Origin: Candidatus Doudnabacteria bacterium
GTDB lineage: Bacteria > Patescibacteriota > Doudnabacteria > UBA920 > VMFF01
Assembly (NCBI GenBank): GCA_963840645.1
Contig: CAWIZL010000004.1
Span: 267,470 to 331,469 of the forward strand
DNA length: 64,000 nt
Reading direction: 5' to 3'
In this document: piece by piece, positions 7,371-62,461 of the stretch
Position numbering within the stretch: position 1 is the first letter of the stretch
Layout: every line of letters starts with the position of its first letter
The notes under the pieces: generated by a model
What the model saw: only the letters and a program-made list of their open reading frames with translations
Databases searched by the model: none
What the model was told of the DNA's origin: nothing
Made by a program: the position numbers and the translations under genes

Positions 7371-7850
7371 TCAGTGGTTCTGCTGAATACTGGGAGGCTC
7401 GCAGCCACCCGTGTCGCAGCCACCGTTGTTACAAATGGAATGGCTGAGCCAATCGTTCTTCGGCTGTTGGCCGAACATTTCCTGATAGAGAAAAAGTGTG
7501 TTCAGCCAGTTGTCGTTCGCCAAACCGCTGTCCGCCATGACGCGGGTGTGCGGCCGATGATGCAAGAAGAAGCCGAGGTAATCTTCGCAGTCTTGCGCAT
7601 ACCGCTCAGTGTTGAGAATGTGGCGATGCCAGATTGCATCCACGTCATGCCCAGGAACAATGGGAACGCCGGGATGAGCCTTGCAAAGCACCAGAAACCT
7701 CTTGTATTCGTCGACCGCTTCGTCAAAACGTACCGAAGACCAGCCGATAAATTCTGGCTTACGAACTAGTTGATCGGCCACATAAGACAAGTCAAATGTG
7801 GGAAAGGAAATACCGCATTGGCGTATAGCCGCCACCATTACCGAAGCCAT
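7371..7850 (-). CDS. Glycine-rich-domain-containing-protein-like (DUF1399-type) protein with Cys/Gly-rich tail
   Basis: Intact 159-aa ORF. DVDAIWHRHILNTERY matches the conserved IWHxH core of the family. The C-terminus is CNNGGCDTGGCEPP. Confidence 0.55.
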   Translation of the reverse strand: MASVMVAAIRQCGISFPTFDLSYVADQLVRKPEFIGWSSVRFDEAVDEYKRFLVLCKAHPGVPIVPGHDVDAIWHRHILNTERYAQDCEDYLGFFLHHRPHTRVMADSGLANDNWLNTLFLYQEMFGQQPKNDWLSHSICNNGGCDTGGCEPPSIQQNH

Positions 7851-8368: not shown

Positions 8369-9651
8369 CTACTCTTCACCCCGCACAATATCTGCTCCGG
8401 CTGCCTTCAGAATCCCCAAGATGTTTTCGTACTTTCGCTCAACGTGCTCAACGTCGTGGAGCACGCTCTTGCCATCCGCAATGAGCGCTGCAATGATCAT
8501 GACCATGCCGCTGCGAACGTCGAGAGCTCACGTTCGTGCCGTGGAGCGGCGTGGTGCCGGTAATTTCTGCGCGGTGTTGGTCAACAATGTGGCAGTTTGC
8601 GCCCATCTTGGCTAGCTCGTGAATGTAGCCCAGGCGACCCTCGTACATCCACTCGTGCACAGAGAGCTCGTGCCCTCAGCCTGCGTAGCCAGGACTGCGA
8701 ACGGCGGAATGTAGTCAGACATTAAACCTGGGTAAATGTTTGTCTTAATTTTTGCTGCGCGGTACTTGGCCACTGGTTTCTTCACCAAGATTCCGCTTGG
8801 CTGTACCTCAAAGTTCACGCCCATGTCCTTCCACTGGATAGACGCCGCGTACATGAACTGCGGCTGCGCGTGCTCTACAAAAGCTCGCAGCGGGATGCTG
8901 CTGCCAAGTTTGCAAAGCTGGCTGTGACCTCGTTATCGTAAATGACAGCGTGCTCTGCGCCGTGCAGGCTAGCAATGGGCACGCCGTGAATAACCAAGTC
9001 ATGCTGTCCGACATTCTCTATGCGACAGCCAAGTGCGTTTAAAAAGTTGCACAGGTCTTGCACGTGCGGCTCTGTTGCCGCAAGGTGGATGACCGTACTG
9101 CCAGCAGCGCACACAGCTGCCATGATGGCGTTCTCTGTGCCCGTCACGCTCATCTCGTTCAGAATAATTTCAGCGCCAACCAGGCCACCGCGCGGTGCAG
9201 AAATTTCTAGCACCTCTCCCTCCTGTGCCGTTGCGCCAAGTGCAACCATTGCCGCAACGTGCGTATCAATTGGCCGCTTGCCAATGAGGTCTCCGCCTGG
9301 AAACGGCAGCTCAACAGTGCCGAAGCGCGAGAGCAGCGGGCCAATGAGCAGGACAGACCCACGGAACTTTTTGACCAGCAGCGGATTTGGCACTGATGAA
9401 TTCACGCCGCTGCCGTCAATGCTCAAGGTGTGGCTCGCTGCATTGTAGGAAACTTTTGCGCCAAGGTCTGCAACAATTGCCAAGAGGTTGTGGACGTCTG
9501 TGATGTCAGGCACGTTGGAAATGACGCACGGTTTGCCTGCCAGCAAGGAGGCGCAGATAATTGGCAGCGAAGCGTTCACAGATCCAGAAACCCAGAGCCG
9601 GCCAGACAGAGGCTTGCCTCCCTGAATTGTGTAGGTGGACATATAGACCAA
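8369..9651 (-). CDS. murA: UDP-N-acetylglucosamine 1-carboxyvinyltransferase (frame interrupted at least 3 times)
   Basis: The colinear pieces are ORF 8875..9651 (N-terminal 258 aa), 8612..8854, 8448..8660, and a tail ...GILKAAGADIVRGEE ending with a stop at 8369. Confidence 0.9.
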
Positions 9652-11000: not shown

Positions 11001-11406
11001 CATCGAGTGCGGCATTCACCAAAGTATCTGCTGCCTGGTTTTTCTCTCTGCGCACGTGGCTGAACGTAATTTTTTTGAATGAAGGCCTCATGGCCAGAAC
11101 CTGAGATGCCAGTGTCTTGAGCACCGGCTCTTTAATTTTGTACTGGCCGTTGAGCTGCTTGACCACGAGCTCGCTATCAAGGTAGCACTCAACCTCTGCG
11201 TAGCCAGCGTCTCGCGCCCACGCAACAGCAGCAATGAGCGCACTGTACTCAGCGTAGTTGTTCGTCTGCTCGCCAATGGCGCGAGAAATTTCGTGAACCT
11301 TGTTCATGTTGCCAGCAGCACCGCGCTCCCAAAACACTGCCCCAATTGCAGCTGGACCTGGGTTGCCGCGCGCACCGCCGTCTGTGTGGATAGTTAGCGT
11401 ATTCAT
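10978..11406 (-). CDS. rnhA: RNase HI-family ribonuclease
   Basis: MNTLTIHTDGGARGNPGPAAIG, then NNYAEY, then a DSELVVKQ pattern. The ATG at 11406 overlaps the recJ stop (ATGA). TTG at 11460 is less likely. Confidence 0.8.
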   Translation of the reverse strand: MNTLTIHTDGGARGNPGPAAIGAVFWERGAAGNMNKVHEISRAIGEQTNNYAEYSALIAAVAWARDAGYAEVECYLDSELVVKQLNGQYKIKEPVLKTLASQVLAMRPSFKKITFSHVRREKNQAADTLVNAALDASAPAAA

Positions 11407-13062
11407 GCTTGCTTCCTGTAGTCTACCACGCGGAGCTTCACGCGCCGCGCTCCGTTCCACGAATCGTCAATCAGCTCGAACGCCAAATCAACCCTTTCAC
11501 CCGGCTGCAGGCTCTGCGCTGATTTTCCAAACCCGAACGCAATGCACTTCACCGTGCTGCCGCTCGGCAGGCGAACCGTGAGCTGCAGGTGCTTTCCCTC
11601 TTTGCCAACAGGGTTCACGTCCAAAATTTCACAACCACGCAGCATGAAGAGCGGGCTGCGGTTGTCAACGCCAAACGGCTGGAGCTGCTGCACTGCATCG
11701 TACGTCTCTGCTACGACCTCAGCTGGCAGCAGCTCTGCCTCAATGTCTAAAACTTTGGCAAACTTTGCCACGTCTGCGTTCTCGCCCGCGTACGCGAGCA
11801 AATCGCGGTAGAAAATCTCTACGTCTTGCGTCTTTAAGGTGAAGCCTGCTGCAGCTGCGTGGCCGCCGTAGCGAACCAAGTGCTGCTTTGTAGCTGTGAG
11901 CGCATCAACAACGTTGAACCCTCCGAGGCTGCGTGCAGAGCCAGTAGACTCAACCTCGCCACGCTCGAGCACGAGCACTGGCCTAGAAAATTCTTCGACC
12001 AGCTTTCCCGCAACCAAGCCAACCACGCCCTTTGGCCAGTCTGTGCCAGATGCCAAGAGCACTGGGTTTTTTGCAATGAGCTCAAGCTGGCTGCGTGCCT
12101 CAGACATGACGTTCTCTGTTAAAACTTGGCGGCGGGCGTTCAAGGTTTCAAGCTGTGCCGCCAGCTCTGCCGCGCGGGCCGCATCATCTGTCGTGAGGAG
12201 GTCAAACGCAATTGACGCGTGCTCAATGCGGCCAGCTGCGTTGATGCGCGGCGCAACCATGAACCCCAGCGTGTACGTGTCGTACGGCTCGCGCGCAGAC
12301 TTGAGCAGCTCACGCAGCCCAGCCCACTTTGTCTTTGGCAAAACTTTCAGCCCGTAGCCAACCAAAATCCTGTTCTCGCCAATTAAAGAGTGGCAGTCTG
12401 CAACAGTGCCAATGGCAACTAAATCCAAGAACCACTTCTCGTAGCCGCCTGGCAGCTCGTGCATGTCGCGGTACGAGAGCAAGCCACACGCTAGCTTGAA
12501 CGAAACCCCAACTCCAACAAGCTCGTGGTACGGGTACGCGTCACTCGGATTTTTTGGGTTGATGAGCGCGTACGCACCAGGAACTGCGGCCTGTGAGCTC
12601 GTGGTGGTCTGTGATGATAAGGTCAATTCCGTGCGCCTTGCAAAACTCAGCCTCTGCTGTTGAGTTTGTGCCGCAGTCAACCGTAACGACAACGGACACG
12701 TCCTGGGCTGCAATACTTTCAAACGCTGCGAGGTTCAAGCCGTACCCTTCTGTGAATCGATCAGGAATGTACGTGCTCACGTCAGCGCCCAGCACCTTCA
12801 GGCAGCGAAAAATGACAGCGTTGGCTGTAATGGCGTCTGCGTCGTAGTCGCTGTAAATTAAAATTTTCTCCCCACCTGCTACTGCCTCCCAAATTCTGTC
12901 GCACGCAGCTCGCATGTCTTTAAAGAGGAACGGGTCGTGCATGCTCGCGTAGTCTAGGCGCAAGAAATCCGCAGCACCCTCTTGCGGGATGCCGCGGTTC
13001 TTGAGCAGCTGCTCAACCAAGCTCTTCTCTGTTCTCTCTCGAACGTTCCAGACTTTCTGCAT
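11403..13062 (-). CDS. recJ: Single-stranded-DNA-specific exonuclease RecJ (frame interrupted once)
   Basis: ORF 12541..13062 carries the DHH motifs (IYSDYDADAIT, TVDCG, ITDHHE). ORF 11403..12722 carries DHHA1 (GGHAAAAGF) and the OB-like C-terminus. The break is near 12600. Confidence 0.85.
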
Positions 13063-13231
13063 GGGAACAGTATACAGTAGTTAGTAGTTAGTAGTTAGTA
13101 GTTAGTAGTTAGTAGTTAGTAGTTAGTAGTTAGTAGTTAGTAGTTAGTAGTTAGTAGCTAAATTCGAACGGCAGGCTAACGAAAAGAAAGATTTTACGGA
13201 TCCGTCTATTGTCTACTAACCAGTAACTATT
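13063..13231. repeat. Stop-rich junction element, copy D (recJ | gpmI), core inverted relative to copies A-C
   Basis: The left arm is expanded into the TAGTTAG array. The core 13155-13210 (tagctaaattcgaacggcaggctaacgaaaagaaagattttacggatccgtcta) aligns to the reverse complement of the copy C core. Confidence 0.75.
13078..13157. repeat. Heptanucleotide microsatellite (TAGTTAG) x 11.4
   Basis: Perfect 7-nt periodicity counted from 13078 to 13154, plus a trailing tag. Confidence 0.97.
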
Positions 13232-16024: not shown

Positions 16025-16128
16025 GGAACAGTAGTTAATAGTTACTAGATAGTAGACAGGTCCAGTAAAATTTTCATTCTATTGATAAGCGGCAGTAATT
16101 TAGCTATTAACTATTACCTATTGACTAC
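16025..16128. repeat. Stop-rich junction element, copy B (pgk | gap)
   Basis: 16032-16041 tagttaatag pairs with 16104-16113 ctattaacta (10/10). The core is aaaattttcattctattgataagcggcagtaatttagcta. The gap stop TAG (16125) lies inside the right arm. Confidence 0.75.
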
Positions 16129-40534: not shown

Positions 40535-40647
40535 AGGTGCAGGTAGTTGGTAGTTAGTAGTTGATAGCTGGAGCCGATAGTTAGTATAGGGTAGCAGATG
40601 GTAACGCGCAAACGTGCGGATGCGATCTATTAACTACCAACTATTAA
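40535..40647. repeat. Stop-rich junction element, copy E (secY | rplO), core in the copy D orientation
   Basis: 40544-40556 tagttggtagtta pairs with 40631-40643 taactaccaacta (13/13). gtgcggatgcgatcta resembles the gcggatccgtcta core end. Confidence 0.75.
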
Positions 40648-41095: not shown

Positions 41096-41644
41096 TTAAG
41101 CAGCTGCGGCTGTTGCTGCACCGAGTCCGCGACGCTCTTTGAGCTGCTGCTTGCTCTTCATCACCTTGAACGCTTCGAACACAGCCTTCACGTTGTTCAC
41201 CTTGTTGGATGAGCCAATCATTTTGCTGAGAATGTTCTTCACGCCAGCAAGCTCTAAGACGCTCCTGAGTGCACCGCCGGCAATGATGCCGGTACCAGGC
41301 GCTGCTGGCAGCAAGACAATGCGGCTCGAGCCGTACTTTAAATCTACGCGGTAGGGAATGGTTGACTTATCCAAAGGCACGGTGACCATCACCTTCTTGG
41401 CTGCGTTCACAGCTTTGTTCACAGCCTCTGCTACGTCTACGCCCTTGCGCAGGCCAATGCCAACCTTGCCACGCCTGTCGCCAATGACGACGAGTGCGCG
41501 GAAGCGCATGCGCTTGCCGCCGGCAACCACGCGCGTGACGCGCTTGACCTCAACGACCTTCTGGTCAAACTCTTTTGGCTGGCGGTCGCCGCGGTCACGT
41601 CCGCCGCCGCGGTTTCCAAATTCTCGTTTCTTTTCTGGTGGCAT
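41096..41644 (-). CDS. rpsE: 30S ribosomal protein S5
   Basis: Intact ORF. VKRVTRVVAGGKRMRFRALVVIGD is typical S5. It lies directly next to rplO with no L30 gene between. Confidence 0.93.
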   Translation of the reverse strand: MPPEKKREFGNRGGGRDRGDRQPKEFDQKVVEVKRVTRVVAGGKRMRFRALVVIGDRRGKVGIGLRKGVDVAEAVNKAVNAAKKVMVTVPLDKSTIPYRVDLKYGSSRIVLLPAAPGTGIIAGGALRSVLELAGVKNILSKMIGSSNKVNNVKAVFEAFKVMKSKQQLKERRGLGAATAAAA

Positions 41645-44510: not shown

Positions 44511-44549
44511 TGGGGAGTAGTTAGTATAAGTAGTTAGTAGCCTGAAACG

Positions 44550-45449: not shown

Positions 45450-45554
45450 GGGAGCAAGTAGTTAGTATAAATAGTTATTAGACGGATCCGCAAAATTTTT
45501 CATTCTATTGGTAGGCTGTCGTAGTTTAGCTACTGAATACTTATACTAACTACT
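45450..45554. repeat. Stop-rich junction element, copy C (rplP | rpsC)
   Basis: 45457-45473 agtagttagtataaata pairs with 45538-45554 tacttatactaactact (16/17, the mismatch being a G-U equivalent). The core is tagacggatccgcaaaatttttcattctattggtaggctgtcgtagtttagcta. The rpsC stop (45546) lies inside the right arm. Confidence 0.8.
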
Positions 45555-46211: not shown

Positions 46212-46258
46212 GGGACAGTAGTTAGTATGAGTAGTTAGTAGTCGGGAACAGAGACCAG

Positions 46259-50542: not shown

Positions 50543-50571
50543 ATTTTATACTAGTCTCACGGTTTTGTCAA
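50543..50571 (-). promoter_or_regulatory. Sigma70-type promoter of the S10 operon
   Basis: Minus strand: TTGACA (50571-50566), 17-nt spacer, TAAAAT (50548-50543). The 8-bp inverted repeat tctcacgg/ccgtgaga brackets the -35. Confidence 0.55.
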
Positions 50572-50612
50572 AGAGCTAGAAACGTCCGTGAGAACCCCTC
50601 AGACAAACCCGC

Positions 50613-50644
50613 GAGGCTCAATTCCAATTAAGGAATTGAGCCTC
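50613..50644 (-). terminator. 13-bp hairpin directly after tuf (terminator or stabiliser; weak U-tract)
   Basis: 50613-50625 gaggctcaattcc pairs with 50632-50644 ggaattgagcctc. It lies 10 nt below the tuf stop (50655). Confidence 0.45.
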
Positions 50645-50654
50645 TTCGGGCGAT

Positions 50655-51846
50655 CTACTTTATGATGGAAACCACGACACCAGCGCCTACAGTGTGGCCT
50701 CCTTCGCGGATGGCGAAGCGCTGCTTTTCTTCAAGGGCGACTGGAGTTAATGAGCTTCACGGTGAACTTCACTGTGTCGCCTGGCATAACCATTTCCTGG
50801 CCTTCTGGCAAGGGTAACTTCGCCGGTCACATCTGTTGTGCGGATGTAGAACTGTGGCTTGTAGCCTTTGAAGAACGGAGTGTGGCGACCACCTTCTTCT
50901 TTCGTCAAGATGTAAACTTCGCCTTCGAACTCGGTGTGAGGCGTAACGCTGCCTGGCTTAGCCAAGACCTGTCCGCGCTCTACGTCGTCTTTCTTTGTAC
51001 CGCGGAGCAAGATACCTGCGTTGTCGCCAGCCATACCTTCATCGAGCTGCTTGTTGAACATTTCAATACCAGTGATGACAGTCTTTGCTGTTGGGCTGGA
51101 TACCGACGATTTCGATTTCTTCGTTGATCTTAACGATGCCGCGCTCAATACGGCCTGTAACCACAGTGCCACGGCCTTCAATAGAGAAGATGTCTTCAAT
51201 TGGCATGAGGAACGGCTTGTCTGTGTCGCGAACTGGGTCTGGGATGAACGTGTCGAGTGCATCCATGAGCTTCATGATTGAAGGTTCGCCAATCTCTGAC
51301 TGGTCGCCTTCAAGAGCTTTAAGAGCTGAACCGCGGATAATTGGGTGTTGTTGCCCTGGGAAGTCGTACTTTGTGAGAAGGTCGCGAATTTCTTCTTCAA
51401 CGAGGTCGAGAAGTTCTTTGTCGTCAACCATGTCAAACTTGTTCATGAAAACGACAATGTAAGGTACGCCCACCTGCTTAGCAAGCAAGAATGTGCTCAC
51501 GGGTCTGAGGCATTGCGCCGTCAGTTGCGGAAACAACCAAGATAGCGCCGTCCATTTGGGCGGCACCTGTGATCATGTTCTTGATGTAGTCAGCGTGGCC
51601 TGGGCAGTCTACGTGTGCGTAGTGGCGCTTTTCTGTTTCGTATTCTGCGTGAGACGTGTTGATGGTAATACCGCGAGCTTTTTCTTCTGGAGCATTGTCG
51701 ATGGAATCGTACGCACGAGCCTTTGCAAAGCCCTTCTTTGCCAAAACTGTGGTGATTGCAGCTGTGAGCGTTGTCTTGCCGTGGTCAACGTGGCCAATGG
51801 TACCAACGTTCACGTGGACTTTGCTTCGTTCAAACTTATCTGCCAT
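50655..51846 (-). CDS. tuf: Elongation factor Tu (frame interrupted at least 3 times)
   Basis: The gene is in four colinear pieces. [26 protein letters not shown] starts at ATG 51846. It continues through ORFs 51478..51879, 51063..51566 and 50747..51262. The tail is [30 protein letters not shown] with stop at 50655. Confidence 0.92.
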
Positions 51847-52047
51847 GTCCTTATCCTTATGTAGCCCGAGCACGTGCACCGCGAGGGTGTCAACTCTTTT
51901 TTCCTATTCCTAGGATCCAGGGCAAAGTTAATTGTTTGTTAAATTCTTATGTCTTTCGGGCTAACTTTTCTTGGAAATGGCCTCGCACAACGCGCGCTGC
52001 GGGATCATTCACAAAAAAAGCTTCTCGAAAGCTTTGACGCTATTGGG

Positions 52048-52085: not shown

Positions 52086-52253
52086 CTACTGGGGATCGGT
52101 TTCCTTGAGGTCTGTAGTGTGCTCTTTGAAATCTTCCTGTATTTTGACTAGCTCTGGATCAACCACTTCAGTGTTATCTGGCAAAATCTCTACTTGATCC
52201 TTCGTGACAGGGTTTTCTGAACGGTTTTCTATATTTTTTGAAATATTTTCCAT
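52086..52253 (-). CDS. Small acidic hypothetical protein (55 aa), possibly translated from a leaderless mRNA
   Basis: MENISKNIENRSENPVTKDQVEILPDNTEVVDPELVKIQEDFKEHTTDLKETDPQ. An extended -10 TGGTATAAT (52268-52260) ends 6 nt before the ATG. Confidence 0.35.
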   Translation of the reverse strand: MENISKNIENRSENPVTKDQVEILPDNTEVVDPELVKIQEDFKEHTTDLKETDPQ

Positions 52254-52270
52254 GTCTCTATTATACCACC

Positions 52271-52312
52271 AAAAATACAAAAGAGACGAAGTCGTGGTAC
52301 GACGTTCGTCTC
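52271..52312 (-). terminator. Strong rho-independent terminator ending the 55405-52349 operon
   Basis: Nested 13-bp stem from 52283 to 52312: gagacgaa-gtcgt, loop ggt, acgac-g-ttcgtctc. On the minus strand it is followed by ttttgtattttt. Confidence 0.7.
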
Positions 52313-52348
52313 TCAGGTGTTTGGAGCCTGGCTTGGTAGCCGGCTCCG

Positions 52349-52948
52349 CTAGAAATGTTCCTCCATTTTAGCGTTGAGGCGCGTGGTGAGAAATTCCTTC
52401 CACACGCGCGTGGTGGCAATCATCATCTTCATTTTCTCTGCCCGGTTGGGCAGGTACCAATCAATGATGACGCCATCAAGTTTCGGTACGTTTGGAACGG
52501 CGTCTTCCATGTTCATGAAGATTCCGTTCCACTTGTCTCTCGCAACGTCAGCTGGCTTGCCGTCCTCCCACTTGAAGAGGTCGGAAAATTCCAGCCCGTC
52601 GCTGAATACCAGCACGTGGTCGCCGGCAACCAGGTGGTCTTCGTGGATCGTATTGAGGATCCCGAACACCAGTTCGCTGCGCTTCTCGTTGTGGAGGGTT
52701 TTAATTACCTCCTCACGGGTTTCTTCGATGTCTGACTGCCCATCACCTTTCGGTGCGTGGGCAGCGATGTCTACTTTCCTAATGAGGTTGTAGGCCCCAC
52801 TTGCGCCGAGACGGTGGAACAGGATTTGCACCCTGTAGCCTCGGTTTGTCGATTGCGATACCATGTCCGAATTGAGTCGAAGCTCCAGCTGCTCGGTGAG
52901 GAGTTTTGGATCCCCAGAACTGCTGTCAACGAACACGTCATACTTCAC
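52349..52948 (-). CDS. Hypothetical protein with alternating beta/alpha, vWA-like pattern
   Basis: Intact 199-aa ORF. The GTG start overlaps the upstream stop (GTGA). YDVFVDSSSG, VQILFHR, HVLVFSDGLE and VIIDWYL resemble vWA strands with a degenerate MIDAS motif. The assignment is tentative. Confidence 0.5.
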   Translation of the reverse strand: MKYDVFVDSSSGDPKLLTEQLELRLNSDMVSQSTNRGYRVQILFHRLGASGAYNLIRKVDIAAHAPKGDGQSDIEETREEVIKTLHNEKRSELVFGILNTIHEDHLVAGDHVLVFSDGLEFSDLFKWEDGKPADVARDKWNGIFMNMEDAVPNVPKLDGVIIDWYLPNRAEKMKMMIATTRVWKEFLTTRLNAKMEEHF

Positions 52949-53584
52949 TGGCGGGGCAACTCAATCGCGTTGAGTTCAGCCACTCGCCGCTCTACAGCGG
53001 CTCGCGCCTTGAGTAGCAGAGGTATCCGTGATGTTGGGTTTGCGTCATGCCACTGGCGGGATCAGTTCTTCGGTGGTTGGCGTTTCTTTTCCATCGATGT
53101 TTTTGATCACAACCAGGTTCAAGCCCTTGCCCTGCTTTATCCCTTTCTCACGGATGTCCGTGAGCCACTCTGGAGTGACAGCCCGTTCAGGGAAATCGCG
53201 ACGAACGGTGATGCTCTCCCAGCTCGGGACAAACGTGCTGACAGGTCGCACCGCCACAAAATAGTAGGCAGCGAAAGCGACCAGCAACCCGAACACGATA
53301 CCTGTGGCAATCCAGCTTACCGGAACGTGATCGCCATCGGATTTCTGATCGGCGTATACGTCGCTTGCTACGGATACGTGAAGCTCCGTATGCCTCACCG
53401 GAGTAGGGGTTTGCACTGGATCTGGAGAAGGTTGTGCTGCGGGAAGTACTTGTGGCACCTCCCGCAGAAACGGTTTTTGGTTTGGACTCACTGGAGGTGG
53501 TGCAGTCCGCTTTTCTATCGTTCTACCGCCGCCGAGTCTTCTCGGCGACGGCTGCTTTACACCCGACAATGGGTACATATCCAC
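52945..53584 (-). CDS. Hypothetical proline-rich single-pass membrane protein (frame interrupted once)
   Basis: ORF 53045..53584 has a P-rich N-terminus and a TM helix (WIATGIVFGLLVAFAAYYFVAV). A frame change near 53050 adds the tail ...IPLLLKARAAVERRVAELNAIELPRQ, ending at 52945. Confidence 0.5.
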
Positions 53585-53587
53585 TCC

Positions 53588-55405
53588 TTATGTTTTGTGT
53601 GCTGCTATACCTTTTTCCAGATCCGGCAGCCTTTGCTCATCTGCCGTCGGCGTTTGACCCTCAATCTGAAACTTCTTCTGCCTGCGCAGCTCAGCGGCGG
53701 CGCTCCTCTGCGCTTCCTCTGACGAACGTTGTTGAACAGCGCGGTCGAATTCGGCTTGCGCATTACGCCTCGCGGTGATCTTGCCCTTCTCGTCGTCGGT
53801 AAATTGAACGATGAGGGGTTCGATCTTGGTCAAAACATCGAGGGCGGGCAGTCTTGGATCAAATGCTGCTATTAAGGCTTCCAAGTCCGGATCCGCCAGA
53901 GCCAACGGTGCCGCGTCCTTCGCAGACTTTGCGATGCGGGCACTGGGGCCACTCTGGAGGTACCTGTCACGGTCGAGCTTGCCTTCCAGCAAGCGCATCA
54001 TCGAATCAATCAGGTCCCCAACTCCCGGCAGGTAAACTTCGCCGTGCACCCTTCGGTACCCAGCGAGTAATTCTGCGCGGTAGGTTCTCTGTTCTTTAAT
54101 GGCGGCGAGGAGCTCCTGCAGCGGAACTTCTGCACTCTGCACGTCTGCCTTGTAAGCAACGTTTGCAACTTCAATTGGGTCTGGCGCCGGCTTTGCGGCT
54201 TCTTTGAGGTCAGCTTGGTAGGCGGCCATATCGGCTTCGTACTTTGCATTCGCCTGCGCGAGGCGCTCTGAATTGCGCGCGGCACGGAGGGCGAGTTCGT
54301 TCTTGGCCAAATCTTGTGTCGAGCGCACCTTGTCAGTCAGTTTTTGCTCCTGCTCAACAAAGTACTTCGGCAGAGGCGTCGTGACGAGCATCTCGATGAA
54401 GATGCTCACGAGGAAGCAAACTGGAACCATCCAGGTTCCCAGGCTCGTACCTGCCAGAGTAGAATCACTGGCAATTTGGCTGAGCCGGTACCAAACGAAC
54501 GCTACAGTGGCAATGAAGAGGACGCTCATTGCGCCGATCCCCACGACCCACTTCGCGCTATCCGGTGCCTGTGGCTTGCCGTACCTGTTCTTCACCGTAG
54601 AATCAAGCTTTGCGAATACCGCGAGAGCTCTTTGTACGTGAGGAGGTGGTGGCACTGCTCCACTCCGAAGAGTATGAGCAAGTTGCTGAGGACTGCGATG
54701 ACGAAGATCACTGCGAACGTTGCCACTGGCCCCATGACAGTTCTGGTGACCTCAATGTTCAGAGATCCCTCGACCAAGGCCATGATGACCGACGATGCGA
54801 TGGTCACAATGAATGCAAGCTTTGCAGCTGGCATCATGACGCTGAGGAGACTTCGCTTCGGATCGCCAACCGCAGAAACACGGTTCGTCGTCAGATCGAC
54901 TGTGTACTGCTCCCACTCCTTCTCCGCCGGTGAAGAGCCGTCCTGTTCAAGGACAACCTCTCCCCTGACCGGTTCAGGAATTTGGACCGCCTGCTGAACG
55001 GGAGGTTCTATCTCCCCTTCAGCAATTTGGACCCCGCTCGCGGGTGACGTGCTCGATGACGTCAATGAATCGCCCGCGCGCCTCAGCTTCTTCTGCCTGG
55101 CGCTTTGCGGCCAGCTCTACCTTGAGAATCGGCCACCTGCTCAGAGTATCTCTCAGCCATGCGCCGTTCTCCTGAATGTGCGGGGCGACCGCGGTGTTCT
55201 CGAATTCTTTCCAGCCGTCCGCAGCGTCTAAAGCAACGCTCTCGCACAGCTCGTAAAAGTTATCGTGGTTAGTGTCAAAGGCAGCCGCGGTGCGCGACAG
55301 CCTCTTCGTGGCAATGTTATCCAGGTGGATGAGCATGCTACTGGTGTCATACATCTCGTTGCTGTTTGCCGCCAACTCTTCGGCGTTTTTGTTTTCGCTT
55401 TGCAT
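53588..55405 (-). CDS. Hypothetical membrane protein of about 600 aa, with about 5 TM helices and a long coiled-coil C-terminal half (frame interrupted twice; may be up to 3 ORFs)
   Basis: ORFs 55019..55405, 54592..55065 and 53588..54655 are colinear. The junction at C-run 55032-55035 restores ...HVTRER/VQIAEGEIEPP. The second junction is near 54640. AGGGAGG lies before the ATG at 55405. Confidence 0.5.
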
Positions 55406-55547
55406 ACTAATACTTAACCTCCCTATATTCTAAAGTTGAACTTCTGCTACAGGTGCCAAGCAAAGGATAAGTAAGATTGCACTCAACCTATGCACGGCAC
55501 CTGGCCGCAGAAATCAACCTGTATTCGGTTGTAAAAGTACTGGTCGC

Positions 55548-55576
55548 ATTTTAACATTTATAAATGATATTGTCAA
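55548..55576 (-). promoter_or_regulatory. Sigma70 promoter for the 55405-52349 operon
   Basis: Minus strand: TTGACA (55576-55571), 17-nt spacer, TAAAAT (55553-55548). The leader is about 140 nt. Confidence 0.6.
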
Positions 55577-55638
55577 TAGTTAGACCTTATATTTTTATTA
55601 ATTAGCAAAAATACCAATATACCATGACTTTTAGCCTA

Positions 55639-55667
55639 TTGACATATAGTTAAAATACTGGTATAAT
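55639..55667 (+). promoter_or_regulatory. Perfect-consensus sigma70 promoter for the plus-strand island genes
   Basis: TTGACA (55639-55644), 17-nt spacer, TATAAT (55662-55667). The leader is about 140 nt and ends in AAGGAGG, 8 nt before the ATG at 55815. Confidence 0.7.
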
Positions 55668-55814
55668 AGTATCAAATAAAATAATTTACGGCTTCACGCA
55701 AGCTTACTCTTCACTAGCAAGAAAAGCTTACACGAGGCTATAAACCCAGAAACTCCCAGTGTTTGCCTCAAAACACTGGAACGCACCAAAAACCCACAAG
55801 GAGGGTTTGAGACG

Positions 55815-56729
55815 ATGTTTACAAAGAAATGCTTCACCGTGCGCATCGCTGTATTGTTGCTGATGGTATTCGGGTTCAATACCCTTGCCGCAGCAGCTGA
55901 ACAAATCCAAGCCAAAAAGCTTGGCCCAATTGCCAGCCTCGAAAAAGCCGGCAAATCAATGTACTTTCTGACCTCGCTGCTCGACGAGAAAGGCAACAAG
56001 CTTGATCCAGCAGACAACGGCAAGTGGCCTGATGGAAGCTTCACCCTTCCCGACGACGCGGTCGAAGACAAAGAAGGCACGTTCGCCTTCCTGGCTGCCA
56101 TCAATGACAGCCCGACCAAAGCAAAGGGCAAGAAAGCTCAAGGCTTCCACAAAGGCACGCCTCTTGGATGTCCTCCTCCTACTGAGAAGGTCATCGAAAA
56201 AGCAATCACGAAAGAGCACGATCTCTTCGAGCTCACGGTGACCAAGACCATCAAGGTAGGAGAAGTTGCAACGTTTGAGAAGTTCTCAGACGGCAGCGCT
56301 TTCTACACAGTGGAGGTGGATCAGACCACCAAAGGGGTAACAGAATTCAACCAGAGCGATAACACCTTTACGCTCACCGGCAAAAAGGTTGGTAGAAACA
56401 TCATCACGGTGTGGGTCGCGACGGACAAAAAGATCCGCGAGTTGATCAACGTTGACGTTGTGGCAGCAGCACCCGCTGCTGGCACAGGCTCTGGAACTTC
56501 AGCCATAACAATTGCAACCTGGACAGTTGGTGGTGTGATTGTCCTCCTCATGTTGCTGGTGTTGCTGGTAATTTTTCTGGTGAGCAAGGCGAAGCCGAGG
56601 CACACTCTTGGTCTCTTTTTCAGAACAGACTACCCGGACGAACCAGTTTCTACAGAGAGCACTCAGCACGTGGCGCCTACACAGGCACCGCCCGCTCGAG
56701 ATGACGACGACCGCTACGAGCGAGTGTAG
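55815..56729 (+). CDS. Hypothetical type I membrane protein (signal peptide, Ig-like ectodomain, C-terminal TM anchor)
   Basis: Intact 304-aa ORF with signal peptide ...FNTLAAAAEQ, a beta-rich segment TVTKTIKVGEVATF...FTLTGKKVGRNIITVWV, and a TM helix WTVGGVIVLLMLLVLLVIFLV. A strong SD precedes it. Confidence 0.65.
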   Translation: MFTKKCFTVRIAVLLLMVFGFNTLAAAAEQIQAKKLGPIASLEKAGKSMYFLTSLLDEKGNKLDPADNGKWPDGSFTLPDDAVEDKEGTFAFLAAINDSPTKAKGKKAQGFHKGTPLGCPPPTEKVIEKAITKEHDLFELTVTKTIKVGEVATFEKFSDGSAFYTVEVDQTTKGVTEFNQSDNTFTLTGKKVGRNIITVWVATDKKIRELINVDVVAAAPAAGTGSGTSAITIATWTVGGVIVLLMLLVLLVIFLVSKAKPRHTLGLFFRTDYPDEPVSTESTQHVAPTQAPPARDDDDRYERV

Positions 56730-56858
56730 CCGTAAAACACATTTGTCATGGGAGAGCCAAGCAACGATAGGCCGGCGAAATACCGCTACTTCCGAAAGGG
56801 AGCATGTAAGTAACCACCATTTGACTTTTGCACTTCATTGAACATCGTACACCGCAAG

Positions 56859-56890
56859 TCTACGTCCAAATCTTGGATGTAGATTTTTTG
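56859..56890 (+). terminator. Rho-independent terminator
   Basis: 10-bp stem: tctacgtcca, loop aatct, tggatgtaga (one G-U pair), followed by TTTTTTG. Confidence 0.7.
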
Positions 56891-56943
56891 CTTTTGAGGC
56901 AAAATACGCTATAATTTTAATATAAATTCTCTACGCCACACTA

Positions 56944-57979: not shown

Positions 57980-60009
57980 GTGGAAATTACTGAAGATCAC
58001 CTCACGCAAGCAGCCCAAGCCGTACACAACCACGTTGCTGACGGCGTTCGTGATACGGCAATGCAGGCAAACTTTCCACTGCACCACCTGGAATCTCTCA
58101 ACGGTTTAATCGAGAGCGCCGGTGGCCAGCCAGAACAGCTGACGCAGATCATAACAGCTCCAGGAGTTGACACGCTCATCCCCCAGCTTGAGTACGTAGA
58201 CGGCGGGACTTCTGATGAGCTTGAAAAAATTGGGGTTCTGGCTTTGCTCGCAGCTGCTGGGGCTGGCGCTGCTGCAGGCACTGCGATGCTGCTGCGGAAA
58301 AAAAGACGCGGTGAAGAAAAAGAATCCGACAACGAAGAAGGTGCGGCGCAAGAACCTGAAGCACGTGCAGCAGAAGAAAAACCAGAGGTGCCCAGACCCA
58401 GAAGCAGATCACAAAGGTGACGAGTTTGCTTGGCACCAAGCCCGAGAAAAAATTAGAGAGAGCTTTGGGAGAATCAGGTCTGGAATACAGGATGCTGAGG
58501 CTGCCCTGTTGGCTGGAGAGATTGAACGCGCGCAAGACTTCTACAGAAACGCAGAAGATACTTTCTATAACATCTCTGTAGAAGATCTACGCGCAGCGCA
58601 AGCCACTGACAGAAAAGATAGCCTGGGCACAGAGCTCCCACGACCTCCAGGGCAAAATCATAAAAGCAAGCCAGGACGCTGAGGCAACCAAGAGAACAGT
58701 CCACACACCAGACGAACCTCCTGCCAAAACCCGAACGGAAATAGAAAATATCGAGAAAGAAAAGCTGGCCGAAAAAGAGAGGCAGTGGCGTTTTGTGCTC
58801 GATGAAACAGAATCAGCCCTTCGCAACAACGAACTAGAGCTGGCTGAGCAGCTGCTCGGACAGGCCAACGATACTGGAATTGATTTTGCGAGAAGGGCGC
58901 GCGCTCTTTCAAACGCGAGCGGCAACAACGAGAGTGGGCAGGCCTACTCAGAGCTTAAACGTAGAGAAAATAAACTGCTAGAGGAACTGTCTGAACGAAT
59001 GAAAGCCGAGGTTAAAATAGAACCAGAGGCTGCGCCAGCTGAACCAAAAGAAGCTCGCCACGTAAAACGTGATTACAGCGAAGCGCAGGTCGAAAGAGCG
59101 GCTGCGATAATCGAAAAAGCCTTCGACTCTGCTGACTCTGAAATTATTTTTCTCGATGAAGACCCTGCGGTTGGGTTGCAAAAAATTCTCTCTGTTTTGG
59201 GTAAGATCGATGAGCTGGCAAACCAACGAGATACGCCTGCGCGCGTGAAAAAAATATACAGCGACGAATGTTATAGTTTGGTCAATAGAATTCACGAAGC
59301 GGGACACGACAATGTAGCTGTGCAGCTCTGGAAAAAGATAGGCCGCGGGGAGCCACTGCCTTTCACAACGGCGGAAGAAGAGACAAACGTAGGCTTGGAT
59401 AACCTAGAGAGACTCAATCACGATATTGAGCAATCTCTCTTGGCGGGAGACACGGCCGGTGCTGCAGAACTACAAGAACAGTTTGCAGCTGAAGTCGCCT
59501 CAATGCCTTTTTCCCTAAACAGGCTAGCAACTAACGAAAAAATCTCAGCACAGGAAAGACTGGATGATATTCAAGCTGCTAACCGCGCGCTGTACGGAGG
59601 AGCTGGTGAGCCTACTTTTGTAGAGCCATCCACAGAGACCAAGCTGACCAAGAAACAGGCTGCCATTTTCGAACGCGCGAAATCCGAAGGCATAAACTTG
59701 TACCCGGAGATGGCGACAAAGTGGAACGAATTTACGCTACCAAGAGAAAGAGGTGGCACGCTGTGGAGCTTAGTTGACAGACAGCTACTCACGCCGAAAG
59801 AAGCTTTAGACATAATTGACGAAATAAAGAGCGTCAAAGAATGGCGCACAAAGAAAGTAAACCTATCTGAACTCACGGATGCTTTCCAGATCCTCTTAAA
59901 AAAGAAGCAGGTCAAGGCTATAAAAAGTGCCGTCGAGGAGATGCGCAGCATGAACGCTGCAATGGATGCGGCGTACAATGAGGCCAAGAAAAAAGGTAAC
60001 AAAAAATAA
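57980..60009 (+). CDS. Hypothetical single-TM, long coiled-coil protein of about 675 aa (frame interrupted twice)
   Basis: ORFs 57980..58420, 58215..58682 and 58795..60009 (the last frame open from about 58630) are colinear, with breaks near 58400 and 58640. One TM helix (GVLALLAAAGAGAAAGTAMLL). The rest is K/E/A-rich helical sequence. Confidence 0.5.
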
Positions 60010-60425: not shown

Positions 60426-60454
60426 TTGACATATTATATATAATATAGTATAAT
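60426..60454 (+). promoter_or_regulatory. Second perfect-consensus sigma70 promoter
   Basis: TTGACA (60426-60431), 17-nt A/T-only spacer, TATAAT (60449-60454). The leader is about 145 nt and ends in GGGAGGAG before the ATG at 60601. Confidence 0.7.
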
Positions 60455-60600
60455 AGGTGTTCACAGGTTGAGAAGGTTTGCCAACATCTAGCAACCCTCC
60501 CCTGCCTGCGAACAACGCTCACGCGTTGAAGTTCGGCTGGCCACCGCAAGGGTGTTTACACCCGAAGGGTGCACATTTAAAAACTCTGGGAGGAGTTGGC

Positions 60601-61386
60601 ATGAATGTTACAAGTGCAATTGAAGGATTGAAAAAGTTTCTTCTCTGGATTTTCCCGTACAAGTGGCTCGAGACCCTCATCGACATAGCGGTTGCAACGT
60701 GGGGTGCCAAAACAATTCTCGAGGGCCAGTCGCGGAAAAACACCTCCCCCACTTTGTGAACTACAACAGTGGTGGAAACTCAAACGCATTCAATGACCTT
60801 CTGCGGGATTTTGAAAAAATGCCAGATGCCGCAGCGAGAGCCGACACCATCAGGACGTGGCTTCTACGGTGGGCGAAAACCGACCACAGGAGGGCGGAAC
60901 ACTTGAAGCTCTCTATAGCAAAAAAAGCCTTAGGAGCGGGTACACTAGACCCAAAATCCTCTGGGTACGGATACGCAATGCAAGACCTGCTCGATCTTGC
61001 CACAGCTGGTCGCTTCGCAGACGAACGCGGCGACGGAGATCGCACACAGAGAGCCGAAGAACTTGGCCTGGTCATGCCGCACTACGGCATGTACTTTGAC
61101 CAAAAAATCCTGGGGTGGGTTAAACGAGAGTTTACCCGCTTCCATGGGCCTAAACGTATGTCGGTTTTATCTGTTACGTGGGACATCGTACTGCTGGCAC
61201 TCCAGGTGCTCTCAGTTGTTGTGTTCCTCGGACTAGCCGCCTTAGTGCTCATGGCACTGTGCGTTGGGTTGCTCGTTCTCAGCCTGGCATACCCCGTAAT
61301 AGGGTTGCTAGTGTTTATTGCCACGGCCGTAGCCGGCTTGGTGGGTCCTCGTACGAACAAAAACAAAAGAGACAGAAGGAGAATAG
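60601..61386 (+). CDS. Hypothetical membrane protein (frame interrupted once; 3' end 61386 or 61502)
   Basis: MNVTSAIEGLKKFLLWIFPYKWLETLIDIAVATWGAKTILEG. A break near 60730 joins it to the ORF 60663..61502 frame. There are 2-3 C-terminal TM helices (VLSVVVFLGLAALVLMALCVGLLVLSLAYPVIGLLVFIATAVAGLVG). Confidence 0.5.
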
Positions 61387-61387
61387 A

Positions 61388-62461
61388 ATGGAAAAGTTCT
61401 TTAAAGGATTGTGGTTCATCGTGCTGGCTATCGCTGCCTACACCTGTTTTCACTTTAGCCGGTGGGAGACGCTTGCCTTCATTGGCGTGCTTGCGGCACT
61501 GACACTGTGGCAAACAAACAAGGGTCTGGCAACGGCCATCTTCGCGTTAGCCGTATACTCTCTCTTGTGGAATTGGAGTTCGTCCCACAATTCGGGAACT
61601 GTCCAGCTCACGCAACGGCTCTTCGGCAACGGCAAAGACCACCTCAAGAATGGCCTTGTCAGGCTCGACCAATCCACCACAGCGGACAGGTGGATTAAGT
61701 ACCAGGTCAAACAGGATACATGGCCCATCAAGTGCTGCCGCAAGAACAACTTTGACCGCAAGACGGGTCAACTGCTCCACACCGATATTGGCACTCAAAC
61801 GCCACTCCCCCTCGAAGCGGGTACGGTAGTGCAAAGTGCCTTCTCTACAGCCGAACAGGAACAAAAAACCTGGGACATGGGAACCTGGTACGAAGGTAGA
61901 AAGTACCTACCAGTAAACATTTTACGAGAGGGCACTCACGGCAAACTCTTTGAGTTCGGTGATACGTCTATGATCTACCTGGTAGACCCAGATGACCTGG
62001 TGGAGGTCGACACCGACAAGGTTAACGGAACCACCGCGGTTTCGGAAAAACCAAAGGTTAGGCCAGCCAATACAAAGAAGGCTGCCACGCCACCACCAGT
62101 TGCCTCCTACGAGAGGAACGGCACCGTGCCAGGTACGTGGCAAGCAGCAGAGGGCGTCATTCGCCCAACCCTGATGGTCACGCTGTCAGGGCAAGACCCA
62201 GCCGAAGTTGCGGTTGGCGTTGTGCACCCAGGCTCTATTGTATGGGTGACCCAGCAACCTGGCGAGACCGAGGATCCAGGCAGCGATGTCCAGGTCACGG
62301 TAGCTGGGAAAAAGGTTGCATTCGATGAGTGCAGCCTCAAAAACTTCTGCAGCTTCAGCGTTCTGGCCAACAACCAGACGCAGGTGCCGCAAAACGTAAC
62401 CATAAACAATATATCGAGGAGGAAACACGTCGTGACCGTTTACGGCCTCGACGCGTTCTAA
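61388..62461 (+). CDS. Hypothetical protein with two N-terminal TM helices and a beta-rich ectodomain
   Basis: ATG at 61388 is preceded by AGGAG. MEKFFKGLWFIVLAIAAYTCF...LAFIGVLAALTLW... 357 aa, in the frame of ORF 61178..62461. Confidence 0.6.
   Translation: MEKFFKGLWFIVLAIAAYTCFHFSRWETLAFIGVLAALTLWQTNKGLATAIFALAVYSLLWNWSSSHNSGTVQLTQRLFGNGKDHLKNGLVRLDQSTTADRWIKYQVKQDTWPIKCCRKNNFDRKTGQLLHTDIGTQTPLPLEAGTVVQSAFSTAEQEQKTWDMGTWYEGRKYLPVNILREGTHGKLFEFGDTSMIYLVDPDDLVEVDTDKVNGTTAVSEKPKVRPANTKKAATPPPVASYERNGTVPGTWQAAEGVIRPTLMVTLSGQDPAEVAVGVVHPGSIVWVTQQPGETEDPGSDVQVTVAGKKVAFDECSLKNFCSFSVLANNQTQVPQNVTINNISRRKHVVTVYGLDAF

Follow-up and report, generated by a model that had tools for sequence, protein, structure and literature searches.

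Predicted back-to-back consensus promoters and structured leaders between divergent envelope-protein genes of a Patescibacteria lineage

The window analyzed here, a 64,000-nucleotide stretch of a Candidatus Doudnabacteria contig, contains an intergenic region of 409 bp (55406-55814) from which two genes diverge, with start codons at 55405 on the minus strand and 55815 on the plus strand. The AT-rich gap of about 400 bp described in the initial annotation of this DNA is thus present, with a GC content of 0.367 (0.23 in its core) against 0.533 for the whole window. An independent Logan contig carries an intergenic region of identical length, 409 nt. To the left of the region lie rpsJ, a frameshifted tuf and the S10/spc ribosomal protein genes. 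The layout of genes and terminators was computed directly.

The plus-strand gene (55815-56729) encodes a 304-aa protein composed of a signal peptide, a conserved N-terminal domain, an Ig-like beta-sandwich, a transmembrane anchor and a tail. Word-indexed homology searches with this ORF and with the 128-aa ORF across the region returned only the query proteins themselves, and a full HMMER scan found nine distant homologues of the 304-aa protein. Within this family (alignment A1) the signal peptide, conserved N-terminal domain and transmembrane anchor are common, and most members align over the beta-rich Ig-like domain. A search with profile A1 added only P0011, metagenome and viral searches (two scans each) with profiles A2 and A5 returned no relatives, and Pfam and PHROGs gave nothing useful for the cluster proteins. 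Modeled by AlphaFold with A1 (10 sequences), the protein reached a pLDDT of 70.5 and matched Ig-like and Big_2-like folds, which point to a generic Ig-like domain only; a single-sequence model (pLDDT 42) was unusable. The model suggests that the product is a membrane-anchored Ig-like surface protein. An intrinsic terminator (56856-56896, plus strand; 14-bp stem and U tract, -18.6 kcal/mol) is predicted downstream of the gene, and a terminator with the same tail, TTTTTTGCTTTT, follows the plus-strand gene of a related locus, L081 (Logan SRR12487045; 3401-3435). Because of this terminator, and because the next plus-strand gene (56944 onward) is preceded by a TATAAT of its own (56910-56915) and by a short leader that lacks a Shine-Dalgarno (SD) sequence, the plus unit appears to be monocistronic.

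On the minus strand, ORFs of 128, 157 and 355 aa (53588-55405) are parts of one gene for a membrane/coiled-coil protein of ~600 aa, split by two frameshifts: a 598-aa protein of L081 matches 55309-55034, 55032-54604 and 54574-53669 in three frames, with 30-41% identity. The 325- and 146-aa plus-strand ORFs likewise represent one gene, and homologues of all three genes are present in L081. Two further minus-strand ORFs, of 179 and 199 aa (52349-53584), belong to the leftward operon. From 55405 to 52349 the minus strand contains only two weak terminator-like sites (5-6-bp stems), both within the ~600-aa gene, and the predicted intrinsic terminator of the operon (52270-52314, minus strand) consists of a hairpin of -20.9 kcal/mol followed by UUUUGUAUUUUUG. 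Between this terminator and tuf we observed a small acidic ORF (52086-52252, minus strand; ~55 aa from an ATG at 52252) with its own extended -10 element (TGGTATAAT), and then a TTGACA-18-TAAACT site and a weak hairpin before tuf.

Frameshifts are not confined to these genes. The tuf gene (50747-51879, minus strand) occupies three reading frames with four frameshifts, yet its segments are 76-89% identical to the tuf of a relative; the split therefore likely reflects assembly indel errors, at a rate of approximately one per 300 nt, rather than a pseudogene. Overlapping out-of-frame ORFs at 11403-12722 and 12541-13062 (recJ) and at 57980-58420 and 58215-58682 look like the same artefact, and those at 60602-60759, 60663-61502 and 61178-62461 are a further likely case. 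A terminator-like hairpin (50600-50660, minus strand; GAGGCTCAATTCC...GGAATTGAGCCTC) separates tuf from rpsJ. A search with rpsJ assigns the organism to Patescibacteria (CPR), the best matches being 84-89% (87% for the top-ranked, L001) and several of them in MAGs labelled Saccharibacteria; among 80 loci matched with rpsJ, none contained the cluster or the intergenic sequence. The cluster does share synteny with L081, L083 and L089-L091, and it adjoins ftsA in L089-L092. Given these relatives and the conserved synteny, what the initial annotation termed an island is a conserved chromosomal cluster of Patescibacteria, with ORFs fragmented by assembly frameshifts, rather than a set of orphans.

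The intergenic region contains two promoter sequences standing back to back. On the plus strand, TTGACA (55639-55644) is followed after a 17-nt spacer, with TG at 55659-55660, by TATAAT (55662-55667), a match to the consensus at 12 of 12 positions; on the minus strand, TTGACA (55576-55571) is followed after 17 nt, again with TG, by TAAAAT (55553-55548), a match at 11 of 12. Both are as the initial annotation had given them, as is the distance between the -35 hexamers, which are separated by the 62 bp from 55577 to 55638. The TG extension and one further base precede each -10 hexamer (TGg on the plus strand, TGt on the minus strand), and both sites have the sequence of sigma-70-type extended -10 promoters (hexamers 17 +/- 1 nt apart, with TG). 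They lie on opposite strands with non-overlapping cores and face divergent genes. Indel errors in the assembly could shift their spacings by 1 nt. From these motifs we infer transcription starts at ~55674 (plus) and ~55541 (minus), taking each to lie 7 nt past the -10 hexamer, together with promoter strength in vivo.

The motifs and their statistical excess were computed directly. Throughout the 64-kb window, five sites match at least 11 of the 12 consensus positions, compared with 0.28 expected. All five have TTGACA and 17-nt spacing, and each lies just 5' of a gene that it is correctly oriented to transcribe. Besides the two divergent promoters, they comprise a site before rpsJ (50571), a site before the gene ending at 7850, and a site at 60426. 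The probability of two such sites in a region of the local composition is 2.5e-4, and that of a perfect site in 55406-55814, given its composition, is 3.5e-4.

The same arrangement occurs in a distant relative. In L081, a divergent gap of 350 bp between homologues of the window's two divergent genes contains two back-to-back TTGACA-17-TATAAT promoters, both 12/12 with TG and with -35 hexamers 20 bp apart (plus promoter, 2215-2243). The minus promoters of the two loci can be aligned (CTATTGACAA...AATGTTA(T/A)AAT), and both minus genes begin with ATGCAA. A third locus, L083, has a 12/12 promoter with TG (83-111) ahead of a leader of ~185 nt. Family loci totalling ~46 kb contain six sites with a 12/12 match, 17-nt spacing and TG, and the window contains one, compared with three such sites across 1.27 Mb of other CPR sequence. 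Not every family locus shares the design: L085 and L089 have weaker promoters or unstructured leaders. Judged from sequence, the two promoters look genuine, being conserved and far beyond chance expectation. The presence of the same design at the matching locus of a distant relative therefore argues for a genuine control region, apparently of a fairly ordinary high-expression type, serving envelope-protein genes of an ultra-small bacterium that has not been cultured.

Other strong promoter sequences were observed nearby and in relatives. A third perfect promoter of the cluster, TTGACA-17-TATAAT (60426-60454, plus strand), follows the gene for a 105-aa protein and precedes a leader of ~145 nt ahead of an ATG at 60602; this leader contains a stretch, CCCUCCCC, able to pair with the SD sequence GGGAGGAG, and no significant structure was detected across 60456-60615 (z = -0.7/-1.2). 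At the syntenic position of L089 (9305-9333, plus strand), a perfect promoter likewise follows the 105-aa gene, and ~70 nt beyond it lies a hairpin resembling a terminator (9402-9422), which might act as an attenuator or represent a small RNA. In L082, which contains the distant family member P0011, a perfect TTGACA-17-TATAAT promoter with TG (12259-12287, minus strand) and a leader of ~119 nt precede a gene for a 642-aa protein, which suggests that consensus promoters with long leaders extend to other genes near members of the 304-aa family. The rpsJ promoter (50543-50571, minus strand; TTGACA-17-TAAAAT) has a leader of ~25 nt without an SD sequence.

In its layout the region resembles known divergent pairs of sigma-70 extended -10 (TGn) promoters, which share a single AT-rich gap between divergent genes, occupy opposite strands without overlapping, and combine TTGACA, a 17-nt spacing and TGnTA(T/A)AAT with an A/T-rich upstream spacer. 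It differs from them in that both promoters are at or near full consensus, a rarity in well-studied genomes, that a recognizable regulator is encoded on neither side, and that the stretch between the promoters, 62 bp in the window and 20 bp in L081, holds no conserved operator. The suggestion that expression is possibly regulated is accordingly left unsupported, and that of coordinated expression of both arms of an island was overstated, the plus transcript being predicted to end at 56856-56896 after its first gene. The spacer does contain a near-palindrome (55590-55613; TATTTTTATTAA/TTAGCAAAAATA, 10 of 12 positions), whose center falls at about -72.5 relative to one predicted start and about -60.5 relative to the other; we dropped it as a candidate operator, as it is not kept in the shorter spacer of L081. 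A weaker promoter-like site, ATGTCA-18-TATATT with TG, occurs on the minus strand at 55616-55645 and overlaps the -35 region of the plus promoter.

The predicted leaders are ~141 nt long on the plus strand and ~136 nt on the minus strand, in keeping with the initial estimate of about 140 nt each. Fold stability, and conservation with covariation, were computed directly, and both leaders fold more stably than shuffled controls: z scores are -3.9/-3.5 for the plus leader and -5.0/-6.35 for the minus leader, and the plus leader of L081 (~138 nt) gives -2.8/-2.6. L081 was the only locus close enough for alignment of the leaders, so that covariation rests on few sequences, two for the second hairpin of the plus leader and four to five for the hairpin at its SD sequence. 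Both of these hairpins, which the initial annotation had singled out, are kept at homologous loci with compensatory changes. The observation thus withstands the refutation proposed there for the leaders, namely hairpins that are not conserved and no more stable than shuffled controls. We infer the roles of the hairpins from these features.

The first hairpin of the plus leader (55685-55744) is imperfect, with a predicted stability of -14 kcal/mol, and consists of an inverted repeat of 21 nt with arms at 55685-55705 and 55724-55744. It holds both copies of AAGCTTAC, at 55700 and 55724, previously reported as a direct repeat with its second copy at about 55725. The two copies exist, but they are arms of the inverted repeat rather than a true direct repeat, the appearance of which is a by-product of AAGCTT being palindromic. 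An analogous first hairpin is found in the plus leader of L081, and the base GCUU.../...GAGGC is common to both. The second hairpin (55756-55779) has a 9-bp stem, CCAGTGTTT (55756-55764) and AAACACTGG (55771-55779), one pair longer than the 8-bp stem described before, and a hexaloop GCCUCA (-13.4 kcal/mol). Between the window and L081, all nine of its pairs are maintained (100% paired), three of them with changes on both sides, and the loop is identical; in control alignments slid out of register, 30-46% of cells paired and there was zero compensation. A covariance model of the second and third hairpins (R1) found no further copies in 1.38 Mb. The apex of the second hairpin (55762-55773, TTTGCCTCAAAA) has a perfect 12-nt reverse complement, TTTTGAGGCAAA, at 56893-56904, 1.13 kb away and after the terminator of the same gene. 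This complementarity is probably due to chance, as its BLAST E value within the window is ~1 and it is absent in L081.

The third hairpin (55790-55808) places the SD sequence AAGGAGG (55798-55804) largely in its loop: AAACCC (55790-55795) and GGGUUU (55803-55808) enclose ACAAGGA, and the 3' arm is formed by the last GG of the SD sequence together with the next 3-4 nt. The same design, with AAGGA at the 3' end of the loop and that GG at the start of the second arm, is found in L081 (ACACUC / CUAAGGA / GGGUGU), L085 (GUUCC / GACAAGGA / GGAAC), L089 (CGGUCC / CAGGA / GGACUG) and L082 (UUUCU / CAAGGA / GGAAG); these hairpins were compared by script, since MAFFT had misaligned those of four loci. 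With a stem of at least 5 bp, SD-in-loop hairpins are present at five of eight distinct family loci, compared with 6.2% of 241 control CPR starts that have GGAGG, and stem pairs 3-6 covary among family loci. The initial annotation was right that AAACCC/GGGTTT overlaps AAGGAGG, but sequestration of the site is not what the fold predicts. The bases A-A-G-G-A have unpaired probabilities of 1.0, 1.0, 0.79, 0.75 and 1.0, and only the final GG is paired. With AAGGA mostly exposed, the hairpin would therefore present or tune the SD sequence rather than sequester it.

The first genes of the cluster have strong canonical SD sequences, unlike a set of genes elsewhere in the window. Many genes that lack an SD sequence, including rpsC, rplP, rplN, secY, pgk and recJ, carry a G-poor motif, ACUAACUAC, directly 5' of the ATG (13076-13157, 46218-46239, 45458-45466, 44517-44538, 40543-40585 and 16031-16039, all on the minus strand); ahead of recJ it is repeated in perfect tandem as 11.7 heptamers (ACTAACT). 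With at most one mismatch allowed, the motif has 31 matches, compared with 6.3 expected, and it is much rarer in related CPR loci. ACUAACUAC may be a lineage-specific, non-SD element of translation initiation.

The minus leader is dominated by one long imperfect hairpin of ~93 nt (55431-55523, -47.8 kcal/mol), followed by the SD sequence GGGAGG (55418-55423), 12 nt 5' of the ATG (55405-55403). L081 has an equivalent long hairpin in the same place (-43 to -44 kcal/mol), and its minus leader is again more stable than shuffled sequences (z = -5.4/-6.75). The two minus leaders cannot be aligned by sequence, and each contains a hairpin of ~90 nt with ~35-40 bp. In the minimum-free-energy fold, the predicted minus 5' end is base-paired.

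Taken together, these features make it likely, in our estimation, that the region consists of back-to-back, maximal-consensus housekeeping promoters that drive high, constitutive transcription, with leaders that act post-transcriptionally. The sigma-70-type extended -10 promoters on both strands would give high and probably constitutive transcription, and the AT-rich spacer would contribute A/T contacts upstream of the promoters, not a conserved operator. Because promoter escape can become limiting at full consensus, such a sequence does not guarantee the strongest output. The plus promoter would produce a monocistronic mRNA of ~1.2 kb containing the 141-nt leader, the 304-aa gene and the terminator at 56856-56896, and the minus promoter an operon mRNA of ~3.3 kb containing the ~136-nt leader, the ~600-aa gene and two ORFs and ending at ~52314-52270. 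The stable hairpins, two in the plus leader and one of ~90 nt in the minus leader, would most likely protect the mRNAs from 5'-end-dependent decay or serve as processing sites. The small hairpin at the SD sequence, with AAGGA shown in its loop and the last GG and next 3-4 nt paired, would tune or gate ribosome binding.

This design recalls the expression signals of abundant envelope and S-layer proteins. The 5' UTR of E. coli ompA is 133 nt long, and hairpins in it and in the slpA leaders of Lactobacillus and Thermus prolong the half-life of the mRNA. Like these, the plus unit appears to be a monocistronic gene for an exported surface protein with a very strong (here predicted) promoter, a leader within the range of ~120-190 nt with stable hairpins, a strong SD sequence and a strong terminator. 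Unlike these, the product is a predicted 304-aa membrane-anchored Ig-like protein, neither a porin nor a demonstrated S-layer protein, and, in contrast to ompA, the first hairpin does not start at the predicted 5' end but ~11 nt into the leader, further than classical 5' stabilizers allow. Strong divergent promoters with structured leaders are a textbook phenomenon; the specific conserved leader elements found here are undescribed.

An alternative to tuning by a largely passive hairpin is that a CsrA/RsmA-type or lineage-specific repressor binds the SD-in-loop hairpin, and perhaps also the conserved CUGGAA at the foot of the second hairpin on its 3' side, in which case translation of an abundant mRNA would be gated; we consider this unlikely, though worth setting out. 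In sequence the hairpin has what such targets have: a short stem with an A(N)GGA loop over the ribosome-binding site, at five of eight family loci and with covarying stems, and a second GGA (CUGGAA), common to the window and L081, 18-23 nt upstream. The core selected by CsrA in SELEX is ACARGGA. The loop ACAAGGA of the window and L085 fits this core. In ultra-small groundwater prokaryotes, csrA is reported among the highly expressed genes (PMC9938205). However, a GGA in the loop follows automatically once an AAGGAGG SD sequence sits in such a hairpin, of which it is a canonical part here, and the resemblance may be incidental. Moreover, when the window and 1.4 Mb of CPR sequence were searched by tblastn with the CsrA proteins of E. 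coli and B. subtilis, no csrA homologue was found. A broader version of the idea, which we regard as doubtful, is that the SD-in-loop and GCCUCA-loop hairpins are an undescribed cis-regulatory RNA of this Patescibacteria lineage, serving as operator to a translational regulator, either CsrA-like or new, by which the envelope cluster would be coordinated. If so, the cluster under this regulator would comprise the ~300-aa Ig-like protein, the ~600-aa and more than 555-aa membrane proteins and the 105-aa protein, with their super-consensus promoters, and it could link to cell-surface remodeling in an epibiotic lifestyle.

Similarly, the ~90-nt minus hairpin, and perhaps the first hairpin of the plus leader, might be processed by the double-strand-specific RNase III, in which case cleavage would remove the 5' part of the leader and determine how stable or translatable the mature mRNA is. 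RNase III substrates of this kind occur in the leaders of rnc, pnp and phage early mRNAs. The length and shape of the duplexes are typical of these substrates, as an imperfect duplex of 35-40 bp in a 5' leader, and duplexes of -44 to -48 kcal/mol are found at the same position in two loci that cannot be aligned. The sequences are unrelated to those of known RNase III leader hairpins, however, and a long hairpin could equally be a passive stabilizer. We think it rather improbable that processing by RNase III is the function of these hairpins.

Long, structured and conserved leaders could also be ligand- or temperature-sensing switches (riboswitches, attenuators or RNA thermometers), and an alternative pairing is conceivable, as an upstream GAGGC is complementary to the GCCUC loop of the second hairpin in both loci (over 7 nt in L081). 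Several observations make such switches very unlikely. Beyond meaningless microRNA-type hits, neither the window nor L081 has an Rfam match at the gathering threshold or at E <= 10. No leader hairpin is followed by a U tract, and 55406-55814 contains no terminator-like site. AUG is absent from both leaders, which leaves no leader peptide, and the AAGGA of the SD sequence is predicted to be unpaired, whereas an RNA thermometer would have its SD bases paired in the ground state. Finally, that the motifs arose by chance in an AT-rich spacer, or mark a replication origin or the control region of a prophage or mobile element, is scarcely credible: the region is AT-rich and marks a switch in gene orientation and AT skew, and its flanking ORFs at first looked like orphans, but two such promoters are improbable at the local composition, the architecture is kept in L081 and L083, there are no PHROG hits, IMG/VR relatives or matches to phage or plasmid DNA, the genes belong to the ftsA-adjoining chromosomal cluster, and an origin is rejected because 55406-55814 has no DnaA-box 9-mer resembling TTATCCACA (<= 1 mismatch; the nearest are at 41367 and 62824).

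To our knowledge, almost nothing is known experimentally about the promoters, 5' UTRs and translation signals of Patescibacteria (CPR), and our literature search found no promoter or 5'-UTR study for them. Read as a pair of strong housekeeping promoters with post-transcriptionally acting leaders, the locus offers a compact case, conserved in evolution, of maximal-consensus promoters that precede long structured leaders, and the genetic tools under development for Patescibacteria require native signals of this kind for strong expression. The conserved cluster of unknown envelope proteins that these promoters serve probably ranks among the lineage's most highly expressed genes, and the SD-loop hairpin is a candidate for post-transcriptional control in organisms that have very few recognizable regulators.
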